From positions 1-64,000 of IMG/VR virus record IMGVR_UViG_3300027747_002439: a stretch of 64,000 nt of DNA; one strand, written 5' to 3'. Numbering within the stretch: the first letter of the stretch is position 1; every line of letters starts with the position of its first letter. Below are positions 17,745 to 19,114 of the stretch, piece after piece. This stretch comes from an uncultured virus (IMG/VR IMGVR_UViG_3300027747_002439). Taxonomy: Duplodnaviria > Heunggongvirae > Uroviricota > Caudoviricetes. The notes beneath the pieces are model-generated. The model had not been told where the DNA came from and did no database searches. It saw only the letters and a list, made by a program, of their open reading frames with translations. A program made the position numbers and the translations under genes.

Positions 17745-18259
17745 GCGGATCGTTAGACTTAGGCTGGCAAAAAGATTCTGCATGTGGGCAACAGGTAAAC
17801 GACGAGTTTAAGGACTTCTTCTTTTCATCTGAGCCTGCAGAAAAATATCAAGCAAAGAATCTTTGCTTCTCATGTCCTGTAAGAAAAGAATGCTTAAAGT
17901 GGGCGTTAGAGCATAAGCAGATCTGGGGTATCTGGGGAGGAAAGGACGAAGGAGAAATTCGTCGCACACTTTCCGTATCATGGAACGGGCAGGAATCTCG
18001 ACGTCAACGTTTTCCGCAGTGTCCATTTTGTAATGCACGACCAAATAAACTTAAGACATTAGTTTTAGACGTTCCAGGCGGAGGGCGTTGGGCAACAATG
18101 CGTCTTGTTCAATGTGAGGCTTGTGATTTTACCTGGCGCTCACGAACAAGTGCAAATGCGGTTGATGCATATCATGTTCAACGCGAGGAAAAATTAGCAA
18201 AGAGCGAGCGCGACAAGGAAAAGAAAAAGAAGCCTAAGAAGGGAAAACCTCTACTGTAG
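17741..18259 (+). CDS. whiB: WhiB-family transcription factor fused to a zinc ribbon
   Basis: W...AC, C.SCPVR.ECL, GIWGG; then CPFC...CEAC and a basic tail. Confidence 0.9.
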   Translation: MSGSLDLGWQKDSACGQQVNDEFKDFFFSSEPAEKYQAKNLCFSCPVRKECLKWALEHKQIWGIWGGKDEGEIRRTLSVSWNGQESRRQRFPQCPFCNARPNKLKTLVLDVPGGGRWATMRLVQCEACDFTWRSRTSANAVDAYHVQREEKLAKSERDKEKKKKPKKGKPLL

Positions 18260-19114
18260 CCAGCGATCCTTATACGCCGCAGCTCTATCTTCCTTATCCT
18301 TTAGATACTCGTACCACCAACGCGATGCGCGTGCATTTTCTGATAGCGTCAGGATACCATAGATAGTTCTGTTATCTAAGTATTGTGTAATTTTCTTATC
18401 GCGCGCGGAGTTAGAAAAGACCATGTACTCCCAGCGGTCAGAATCCTCTAGGTATGAAAGCTCTGAAAGATACTCACGCTTAATGAGGTATGTGCAGTGA
18501 ACACACATGCACTCGACTATTCCTTTAACTCTTTGATCCAGTATGTGGTAGTAGCTATCGTTTGCCACGATTGAACCGTAGTCATCTACGATGTGATGGT
18601 AGTTAGCGTAATACTGTCCAAGGTGTCCTTCGCGCTCCTTGGCGGTTTCCTCGTCATCTACGTTATCACCAAACGCAACAGCATAGCGAATAAACGGAGC
18701 AACGATTGGCAGGTTAAGTTTAATAAGCTCGTTCAACGTCTCTGGGAAAATAAAGTTATCGACGTCAACTACAAAGTAGTATTCGCAGTTGGTTTCTAGA
18801 CACTCGTTAAAACTTTGCTGGCGAATCTTTGCAAGTACCCTAAAACGTTCGCCATTCCACTCGTGTTGCTTAAAGCGCTCGACAGCCTGCTCGACGTTTT
18901 CAGTCTCGTACTTGTAACCCTTATATAGATGCCCGTTCTTTTCAACCCAGTTATTTAAGATTTGAAGGGTATTATCGGTGTTGTTATTTGTGCGGATATA
19001 TAAAAATAATTTTTCCTTAGGGTAATCCCACGCCTCAAGCGACTCAAGAAATAGAGGTAGTACCGCTTCCTTTTGCTTTACAAGAAGTGCAACAAATACA
19101 TCAGGCTGTTCCAT
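18251..19114 (-). CDS. glycosyltransferase resembling the N-terminal GT domain of procollagen galactosyltransferase (COLGALT) or PLOD
   Basis: VALL....LP.FL..LE..DYPKE, NNNTDNT..IL..W, W..ERF.....RQ, VDVDN, IVAP, VHCTYLI, F...AR. Confidence 0.75.
   Translation of the reverse strand: [287 protein letters not shown]

Follow-up and report, generated by a model that had tools for sequence, protein, structure and literature searches.

This analysis concerns a minus-strand gene at positions 18251..19114 of a 64,000-nucleotide stretch of DNA (hereafter the window), which comprises bases 1-64000 of the 74,850-base uncultured virus record IMGVR_UViG_3300027747_002439 (Caudoviricetes). The window is phage DNA, encoding a DNA polymerase, a helicase, a primase, a ribonucleotide reductase and an endolysin, as well as six collagen-like tail fibres. 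An earlier reading of the letters alone (the original prediction) had placed here a glycosyltransferase (GT) resembling animal procollagen galactosyltransferase, and the interval it proposed corresponds exactly to one minus-strand open reading frame (ORF). This single ORF begins with ATG and encodes a stand-alone, one-domain GT-A glycosyltransferase-like protein of 287 amino acids (aa), which carries a DxD motif (D117-V-D119) plus H206, E229 and D247. The gene overlaps the stop of the upstream minus-strand gene (19101..20165), its partner in what follows, by 14 nt, and it is convergent with a plus-strand gene for a WhiB-family regulator that has an extra C-terminal Cys-rich region (17741..18259). 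The WhiB gene adjoins the COLGALT1-like gene in 59 of 69 related viral loci, and what lies downstream of the GT pair is in every case the replication block that contains WhiB. A 100% identical copy of the gene is present in a 129,506-base record with terminal repeats (L032), which is the complete record of the same phage. The ratio of nonsynonymous to synonymous divergence (dN/dS) was 0.018-0.066 against three relatives, at dS of 0.8-0.9, which places the gene under strong purifying selection; five more distant pairs were saturated at synonymous sites. No membrane segment is visible in the protein sequence, and its product is presumably cytoplasmic. Promoter and terminator scans around the pair yielded nothing above shuffled expectation.

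In a phmmer search of all chains in the PDB, four human COLGALT1 sequences ranked at the top (E 2.6e-17 to 4.9e-17; query residues 2-148, matching the N-terminal GT domain), followed by LH3/PLOD3 (E 1.3e-7; chain residues ~272-396); the best ordinary GT2 enzyme reached only E 1.8. Identity to COLGALT1 is 23-26%. All seven N-terminal COLGALT1 motifs named in the original prediction are present in the alignment and in the same order, and the resemblance is confirmed. The aligned pairs include VVDVDN with FVDADN and VFSNS with VFAFS (phage protein and COLGALT1, respectively), IVAPFI of the phage protein and MVHSTFLI of COLGALT1 are among the aligned motifs, and the aligned segment KHWSDSRYEHVMKLRQ precedes VVDVDN/FVDADN.

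The fold comparison gave the same ranking. An AlphaFold2 model built from 16 relatives (mean predicted local distance difference test score, pLDDT, 83.3; predicted template modelling score, pTM, 0.85) has a Rossmann-like alpha/beta/alpha GT-A fold. Its best match was the N-terminal GT1 (NGT) domain of human COLGALT1/GLT25D1 (PDB 9evj, 8zgc, 9u7h; residues 49-320), with a Foldseek E of 1.8e-21, a VIA-align Z of 30.1 and a root-mean-square deviation of 2.7 over 257 residues, making this domain the closest match by both sequence and fold. Next came the accessory (AC) domain of LH3 (residues 293-543; E ~1e-16, Z 26.8) and the second domain of mimivirus R699 (residues 250-455; E 3.7e-13, Z 21.9). 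Yeast Mnn9 (Mnn9/Anp1, family GT62; E ~1e-9, Z 20.9) shares the fold, but at 13% identity it ranks clearly below COLGALT1 and LH3, and the generic enzymes SpsA and TarS (E ~1e-9) and RmlT and TarP (E ~1e-8 to 1e-7) reached Z 17-18. Among the viral models of BFVD, the top matches were PLOD-like proteins of mimivirus, megavirus and moumouvirus. The special affinity to COLGALT and PLOD that had been proposed was thus recovered when the suggested Foldseek comparison with COLGALT1, PLOD3 and mimivirus enzymes was run, and generic bacterial GT2 enzymes were not the best matches. No curated family claims the phage protein: its best Pfam match, Anp1 (PF03452; E 1.5e-6), scores 28.3 bits against a gathering cut-off of 28.8, Glyco_tranf_2_4 (PF13704) is also below its cut-off (21.8 versus 27.5 bits), and there was neither a PHROG match at E<=1e-5 nor an NCBIfam match at E<=1e-3. 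The large family to which the protein belongs is the prokaryotic and viral counterpart of the COLGALT1 GT1/NGT domain and of the LH3/PLOD3 and R699 accessory domains.

The likeness has limits on the animal side. The N-terminal GT1/NGT hallmark of COLGALT-type enzymes is present, while a C-terminal GT25 domain in the same chain and a hydroxylysine (Hyl) acceptor setting are not. In COLGALT1, GT1 is one half of a two-domain enzyme of the endoplasmic reticulum, whereas the phage protein stands alone and is probably cytoplasmic, and the candidate acceptors encoded near its gene have Thr rather than Lys or Hyl. Searches of the record of the window, and of the 129.5-kb record that holds this phage complete, found neither GT25 (PF01755) nor the 2-oxoglutarate oxygenase family PF13640, the only oxygenase family searched. 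The AC domain of LH3 reportedly binds neither metal nor co-substrate (PMC12003778, accessible text), and here the phage protein differs, in that the invariant DxD and the residues of a uridine diphosphate (UDP)-sugar pocket are retained within the shared AC-type fold of LH3 and R699.

We then asked how widely the domain occurs. A word-indexed protein search returned 451 proteins at E<=1e-3; the 120 of these that were listed share 57-92% identity with the phage protein, are mostly ~287 aa long, and bear no informative names. Among 1.84 billion cluster representatives, a profile search matched 1269 at E<=1e-3 (349 at E<=1e-30), and the domain is present in all 150 representatives listed, many of them multidomain or with tandem copies. 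Forty representatives were scanned with Pfam. Eight have GT25, which lies C-terminal to the target-like domain in all seven where Pfam located both (in the other, P0144, the domain was located by the phage protein only); other partners are GT2, GT4, GT32, methyltransferase, sulfotransferase and GDSL domains. A Bradyrhizobium glycosyltransferase of 1882 aa is a representative that has a name. When prokaryotic species were scanned, each by one genome, 211 stretches matched, of which 78 were kept as the bacterial loci analysed here, with 38-50% identity to the phage protein. These are mainly alphaproteobacterial (Mesorhizobium, Bradyrhizobium, Methylobacterium), with others from Methylobacter, Gammaproteobacteria, Acidobacteriaceae, Gemmatimonadales, Chlamydiia, Dependentiae/TM6 and two actinobacterial metagenome-assembled genomes (MAGs). 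The viral set consists of the 69 loci carrying the gene; a tblastn search of the INPHARED phage collection gave no match, and records near that of the window may be omitted from that collection. The description of the domain as of eukaryote or giant-virus type is not supported: it is common in phages and bacteria, whose copies share 36-97% identity with the phage protein as against the 23-26% of COLGALT1.

The 53 domain sequences in an IQ-TREE phylogeny were that of the window, those of 13 viral loci (out of 69) and 39 bacterial rows, drawn from 38 of the 78 bacterial loci by taking one or two loci for each taxon label. One supported split (100/99) separates the 14 phage rows, two actinobacterial MAG rows and two betaproteobacterial stand-alone rows from the 35 other bacterial rows, and twelve of the phage rows form a clade (100/99). 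The root is a midpoint root only, L066 and L069 sit on long branches, and the tree, having no animal or giant-virus sequences, says nothing on the direction of descent. The position of the actinobacterial MAG rows, together with the WhiB gene, hints at an actinobacterial host for the phage. Some single-domain members (P0188, P0218, P0239, P0243 and P0214) have N-terminal hydrophobic leaders or a C-terminal membrane segment, features that would suit secretory-pathway forms (eukaryotic or giant-virus) or envelope-anchored ones. An ESM Atlas feature search returned viral GT2/Anp1-like clusters, one of them automatically named 'GT family 25, N-terminal domain', which we treat as leads only.

The accessible parts of PMC12003778 and PMC12987934 describe COLGALT1 as an N-terminal GT1/NGT domain joined to a C-terminal GT25 domain, with catalysis residing in GT25 and with GT1 non-catalytic, holding UDP-galactose (UDP-Gal) tightly and purely for fold stability. 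According to the former, GT1 also binds Ca2+; its closest solved relative is the LH3 AC domain, which is non-functional and binds nothing; and BLAST with GT1 finds vertebrates, invertebrates and giant viruses, while BLAST with GT25 finds bacteria too (PMC12003778). The residues given there for UDP-Gal and metal binding (Leu59, Arg61, Asp91, Trp135, Arg139, Val143, Arg147, Asp166/168 and Asp265; PMC12003778, accessible text) correspond to L11, K13, N43, W86, R90, L94, R98, D117/D119 and E229 of the phage protein, the DxD motif occupying the same position (D117/D119 = D166/D168) and the pocket being equivalent. All ten positions are invariant in the 16 close relatives (alignment A1). In a distant set of 23 more remote single-domain members (alignment A2), N43, W86, R90, R98, D117 and D119 are invariant, conservation at L11 and E229 is 90% or higher, and K13 and L94 are variable. 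D117-V-D119-N120, with the DxD motif after the fourth strand, is invariant in both alignments. These patterns make a UDP-sugar and metal site in the phage protein very likely; COLGALT1 GT1, however, keeps the same site without catalysis, and the conserved site is therefore no proof of activity.

H206 is invariant in A2 and aligns with VHSTF of COLGALT1, and E229 aligns with D264/D265; COLGALT1 GT1 carries both features yet is reported to be inactive. By the customary names of GT-A motifs, H206 might be the C-terminal His metal ligand and E229 might stand at the acidic xED position (the catalytic base in inverting enzymes). H84 is invariant and D247 near-invariant in the family, positions at which COLGALT1 has Lys and Cys, and these two residues may be candidates for what the animal domain has lost.

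The partner gene (19101..20165, minus strand) encodes 354 aa, with an N-terminal GT-A (GT2) domain and a C-terminal tetratricopeptide repeat (TPR) domain. Its Pfam matches to GT2 and TPR are below the cut-offs; it matches phrog_13126 (E 1.3e-69), and its best PDB sequence match is Listeria GmaR, a weak similarity (E 2.1e-4). The model of the partner (pLDDT 80) has strands to about residue 158 and helical repeats from 166 to 350, and its top Foldseek matches are the glycocin S-glycosyltransferases ThuS and SunS (E 1.4e-13 to 1.7e-10), with GmaR at rank 35. The partner thus looks, from its model, like the GT-A plus TPR peptide glycosyltransferases. Its closest known relatives, SgtA, GmaR and Bacillus SunS/ThuS, have a GT-A domain followed by TPR repeats in ~350-420 aa. 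Clostridioides difficile SgtA is described as a 358-aa protein (GT-A 1-260, TPR repeats 262-358) encoded beside bclA3 and adding beta-O-GlcNAc to Thr of BclA3 collagen-repeat peptides in vitro (PMC7157674, accessible text). The size and layout of SgtA match the phage partner, a likeness by description rather than by direct comparison of sequences. The accessible accounts of the SgtA, GmaR, SunS and ThuS systems mention no second enzyme resembling COLGALT1 GT1.

A homologue of the partner adjoins the COLGALT1-like gene in 62 of the 69 viral loci; of the other seven, three have a contig that ends at the gene and four hold distant homologues of 36-44% identity. P0167 (644 aa) and P0213 (646 aa) are full-length fusions of partner and COLGALT1-like domain in the same order, and P0124 and P0230 are partial ones. 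In a single sub-lineage (viral loci L050-L053 and L065) the partner lies on the opposite strand, converging on the COLGALT1-like gene, and is extended to 551-559 aa.

Bacterial relatives repeat this arrangement in single chains. The Mesorhizobium protein L073 (933 aa), whose gene lies 1.8 kb from a 361-triplet G-X-T gene, is collinear over residues 404-890 with almost all of human COLGALT1 (chain 11-488 of 520; E 1.2e-37), and therefore includes the GT25 half, which is missing from the phage. Ahead of this stretch, residues 4-154 match GmaR (E 4.5e-9), and residues 192-303 weakly match consensus TPR proteins. A layout of [peptide-type GT2-TPR]-[GT1-like]-[GT25] thus exists in bacteria beside a collagen-like gene; in the phage the first two modules are separate genes, and there is no GT25. 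L073 and the 1882-1894-aa Bradyrhizobium proteins (P0168, L140) share the domain at 41-50% identity and adjoin (G-X-T)n genes. In the bacterial multidomain enzymes an N-terminal GT2 lies ~390 residues ahead of the domain, mirroring the two-gene layout of the phage; they differ in being single chains, in many of which GT25, methyltransferase or GDSL domains are also present. Of 45 bacterial proteins scanned, 6 contain GT25. A profile of the partner (A3) recognised the N-terminal GT2 part of only 9 of 81 bacterial GT1-like proteins, and these weakly, for which reason we do not propose orthology between the bacterial N-terminal regions and the phage partner. The same profile found a single full-length neighbour encoded separately (L125), and 4 of the 150 representatives are full-length fusions by this measure.

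The family is associated with collagen-like genes. Using a simple regular expression on ORFs in all frames, with triplets counted in runs of at least 6, we found that in 47 of the 78 bacterial loci the domain has, no more than 10 kb away, a collagen-like ORF with 10 triplets or more; in 39 of the 78 the ORF has at least 41 triplets, and in several 350-580. In the best ORF of each of the 47 loci, position Y is Thr in 5981 of 7188 triplets (83%), and X is Ala in 3606 and Ser in 1416. The three collagen-like ORFs that were scanned all match Pfam Collagen (E 8e-18 to 4e-130), one with a sub-threshold BclA_C domain. A pattern of eight consecutive Gly-any-Thr codon triplets matched 552, 496, 201, 341 and 29 times in five whole genomes (1.2-9.1 Mb), and the reversed pattern never. 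For the first four genomes the count agrees with what one collagen gene, that beside the GT, would give (582, 542, 210 and 351 triplets), suggesting that in these four large genomes the only long (GXT) runs adjoin the GT gene; the places listed for two of the four fall inside the loci, and the other two rest on the counts. The fifth genome has two G-X-T regions, one of them in the locus. Pfam Collagen genes are also found near stand-alone members of 281-292 aa, and in L129 and L136 the scanned neighbours include no other GT. The set of loci lacks phylogenetic independence, Mesorhizobium accounting for at least nine of them. A functional link between the family and collagen-like proteins is supported.

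Two kinds of collagen-like gene in these loci are worth recording. In a Parachlamydiales MAG (L136:93-6963), six tandem collagen-like genes of 352-400 aa, with 47-53 triplets each, lie 2.9 kb from a stand-alone 292-aa member. Giant collagen-like ORFs of 1466-2173 aa (351-582 triplets) occur in L073, L074, L076, L080, L090, L094, L126 and L140, from Mesorhizobium, Bradyrhizobium and related MAGs, each 0.07-2.3 kb from a multidomain GT and with Y nearly pure Thr except in L126.

The six collagen-like genes of the window are all on the minus strand and all match PHROG tail fibres. Three encode the proposed acceptors: 28167..29741 (61 G-X-Y triplets, Y=Thr in 52; Pfam Collagen E 9.6e-25), 33644..35395 (107 triplets, Thr in 91) and 35524..37986 (134 triplets, Thr in 104). 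The others lie at 38086..39873 (44 triplets, Thr in 34), 39887..42064 (101 triplets, Thr in 70) and 50779..52422 (101 triplets, Thr in 77). Counted in runs of at least 5, the six fibre ORFs and two Gly-rich ORFs of the window contain 565 triplets. Thr occupies position Y in 431 of them and Lys in 5, while position X holds Ala in 243, Leu in 106, Pro in 21 and never Lys. The tracts are therefore as poor in Lys as had been claimed. The proposal of Thr rather than hydroxylysine as the likely acceptor agrees with these counts, with the 47 of 78 bacterial loci that lie near (G-X-T)n genes, and with the absence of GT25 and PF13640 matches from the complete phage record. The gene does not sit next to phage collagens as had been stated, the nearest collagen-like gene of the window being 9 kb away. 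G-X-T runs occur in each of five near-complete phage records with the gene that were tested (114-136 kb, among them the distant L066), a consistency check with no negative set. In Riftia cuticle collagen, galactosyl-Thr at the Y position stabilises proline-poor triple helices, and in the phage fibres, where the 565 triplets contain only 21 Pro, the modification would then serve a structural end.

We observe homology and fold, conserved UDP-sugar/metal residues, gene pairing and fusions, and a family linkage to G-X-T genes; from these we infer catalytic activity, donor sugar, acceptor and the order of steps. On balance we lean towards the reading that the COLGALT1-like protein is a working UDP-sugar GT-A enzyme acting with its TPR partner on Thr of collagen-like fibres. 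It would be a cytoplasmic, metal-dependent, UDP-sugar-binding glycosyltransferase which, with the partner, O-glycosylates the Y-position Thr of (Gly-Ala/Leu-Thr)n tail fibres late in infection. The first sugar would come from the partner, bound to the fibre chain, and the next one from the COLGALT1-like enzyme, which might alternatively start the chain; and a variable island upstream (GT32, GT2, epimerase, sulfotransferase, APS kinase) might elaborate a phage-specific glycan, perhaps sulfated.

Several observations weigh against fibre glycosylation by this enzyme. (i) COLGALT1 GT1/NGT is reported as non-catalytic and the LH3 AC domain as non-functional (PMC12003778, PMC12987934, accessible text), GT1 retains its DxD and ligand residues for a structural role (PMC12003778, accessible text), and in R699 it is the second domain that aligns with the phage protein. 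(ii) The nearest collagen-like gene (28167-29741) is 9 kb from the gene. (iii) No collagen-like ORF was seen in 31 of the 78 bacterial and 45 of the 69 viral loci, many of which are on short contigs, and 8 of the 47 positive loci have only 11-30 triplets. (iv) In 34 of the 45 bacterial proteins scanned an N-terminal GT2 is fused to the domain, and part of the collagen linkage may accordingly belong to that GT2 domain.

The first and last of these would fit a non-catalytic accessory subunit, which binds UDP-sugar and metal, or nothing, and which stabilises, oligomerises or positions a partner that does all the catalysis. Consistent with such a role, the gene is nearly always paired with another GT (62 of 69 loci) or fused to one (34 of 45 bacterial proteins), and the counterpart domains of COLGALT1 and LH3 are described as non-catalytic or non-functional (PMC12003778, PMC12987934, accessible text). 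We nevertheless consider it unlikely: stand-alone members lie near collagen-like genes with no other GT among the scanned neighbours (L129, L136), and the appearance of catalytic modules is given both by tandem domain copies within single proteins (P0121, P0122, P0123) and by fusions of assembly-line type, in which methyl-, sulfo- and other glycosyltransferases are joined to the domain. The H84/D247 of the family as against Lys/Cys in COLGALT1 would also fit a loss of function on the animal side, if the two residues have the role suggested above.

Upstream of the pair lies a low-GC island (20212-27080, minus strand; GC 0.33-0.37 versus ~0.46 elsewhere). It encodes a GT32-type glycosyltransferase (Gly_transf_sug, 20799..21458; Pfam E 3.7e-18; present in 1 of 69 viral loci), a radical SAM/SPASM protein (21461..22447; Pfam, NCBIfam), an NAD-dependent sugar-nucleotide epimerase/dehydratase (22440..23336; Pfam Epimerase E 4.6e-60), a sulfotransferase (23344..24183; Pfam Sulfotransfer_3 E 3.4e-22), a second GT2 glycosyltransferase (24180..24899; GtrB-like by PHROGs, with the NCBIfam GT2 models all below cut-offs) and an adenosine phosphosulfate (APS)-kinase-like protein (25847..26599; Pfam APS_kinase E 7.4e-16; NCBIfam), all on the minus strand. 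The last is a possible source of 3'-phosphoadenosine phosphosulfate (PAPS) for the sulfotransferase. Among the 69 related loci the island was seen only in the phage of the window and the identical record L032; relatives carry other cassettes there. Content upstream of the pair differs between phages, and the pair alone is conserved. The island looks like a swappable module for a sulfated glycan.

This setting brings in a different possibility, namely that the enzyme modifies a wall or surface polymer of the host (teichoic-acid-like, lipopolysaccharide or capsule), blocking superinfection or changing a receptor in the manner of TarP or Gtr and unrelated to the fibres. The GtrB-like GT2 and other polysaccharide-type enzymes of the island would suit it, as would the fold matches to the wall-teichoic-acid GTs TarP, TarS and RmlT (Z ~17), and the phage could be temperate, given its serine recombinase gene (49923-50582). 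Those fold matches fall far below COLGALT1 and LH3, however, and linkage of the family to G-X-T genes across several phyla is unexpected for a wall-polymer enzyme. The protein has no visible membrane segment, and it is the pair, at the end of the tail-fibre block, that is conserved, not the polysaccharide-type island. We judge modification of the host envelope to be distinctly improbable.

A further possibility is that virion proteins other than the fibres are glycosylated, for example those of the capsid or the tail tube. Mycobacteriophages with GT genes offer a proposed precedent, the announcement of phage Maravista suggesting capsid glycosylation from two GT genes (PMC11256854, accessible text). 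The actinobacterial host hinted at by the WhiB gene and by the MAG homologues beside the phage clade would make this precedent relevant here. It is very unlikely to account for the pair, since it leaves the G-X-T gene linkage in bacteria unexplained, and no capsid gene lies near the pair in the window. A DNA-modifying role was dropped, as nothing in the fold matches or gene context points there.

Glycosylation of Thr in collagen-like fibres, if carried out by a conserved two-enzyme core with a swappable island, suggests that fibre glycans form a variable layer of host recognition. The wider implication concerns the animal enzymes, for which the accessible text of PMC12003778 leaves open both the origin of the two-domain form of COLGALT1 and its kinship with LH3. 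Here the GT1 domain is a free-standing, conserved phage gene and a part of hundreds of bacterial proteins, repeatedly adjoining giant (Gly-X-Thr)n genes. This points to enzymes of collagen glycosylation that predate animals, and it raises two questions: (i) where the animal collagen glycosylation machinery came from, and (ii) whether prokaryotic and phage collagens are routinely O-glycosylated on Thr. More tentatively, and with more doubt than conviction, we raise the possibility that the animal enzymes descend from a prokaryotic or phage system that glycosylated collagen repeats, with the bacterial [GT2-TPR]-[GT1-like]-[GT25] proteins resembling the ancestor and the GT1-like domain once a working transferase, which in the phage of the window it may have remained. 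If so, that domain became a silent UDP-Gal scaffold in COLGALT1 and a ligand-free accessory in LH3 and R699, and Gram-negative bacteria and their phages would commonly glycosylate collagen-like proteins, a trait then no longer confined to spore-formers. A 2022 review states that prokaryotic collagen structure is mostly not glycosylated (PMC8968730, accessible text).

O-glycosylation of collagen-like Thr (BclA; BclA3 with SgtA) and the presence of GT-A enzymes in phages are already known. Apparently new are a phage and bacterial family homologous to COLGALT1 GT1 and LH3 AC, its systematic linkage to G-X-T collagen-like genes, and bacterial proteins collinear with the whole of COLGALT1. A search of the full-text literature, with supplements and subscription journals outside its scope, found none of the three described; nor were they found in the accessible parts of PMC12003778, PMC12987934 and PMC13382579, the last two of which make no mention of bacteria there.

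Two further features accompany the fibre genes of the window. The serine recombinase/invertase gene (49923-50582, minus strand) stands among fibre and Gly_rich_2 genes of mixed orientation (48895-49656, 50779-52422, 52917-53756), a setting that recalls the Gin/Cin fibre switches; no inverted repeats of at least 20 nt were found around it at 48.5-57.6 kb, and an invertible fibre switch is therefore unsupported. Five paralogues matching Pfam Gly_rich_2 are encoded at 27283-27825, 29800-31149, 31162-32451, 52917-53756 and 56556-57452, four of which match phrog_2295 (unknown function). In many relatives the conserved pair directly follows fibre-associated Gly_rich_2 genes that are homologues of those at 29800-32451.

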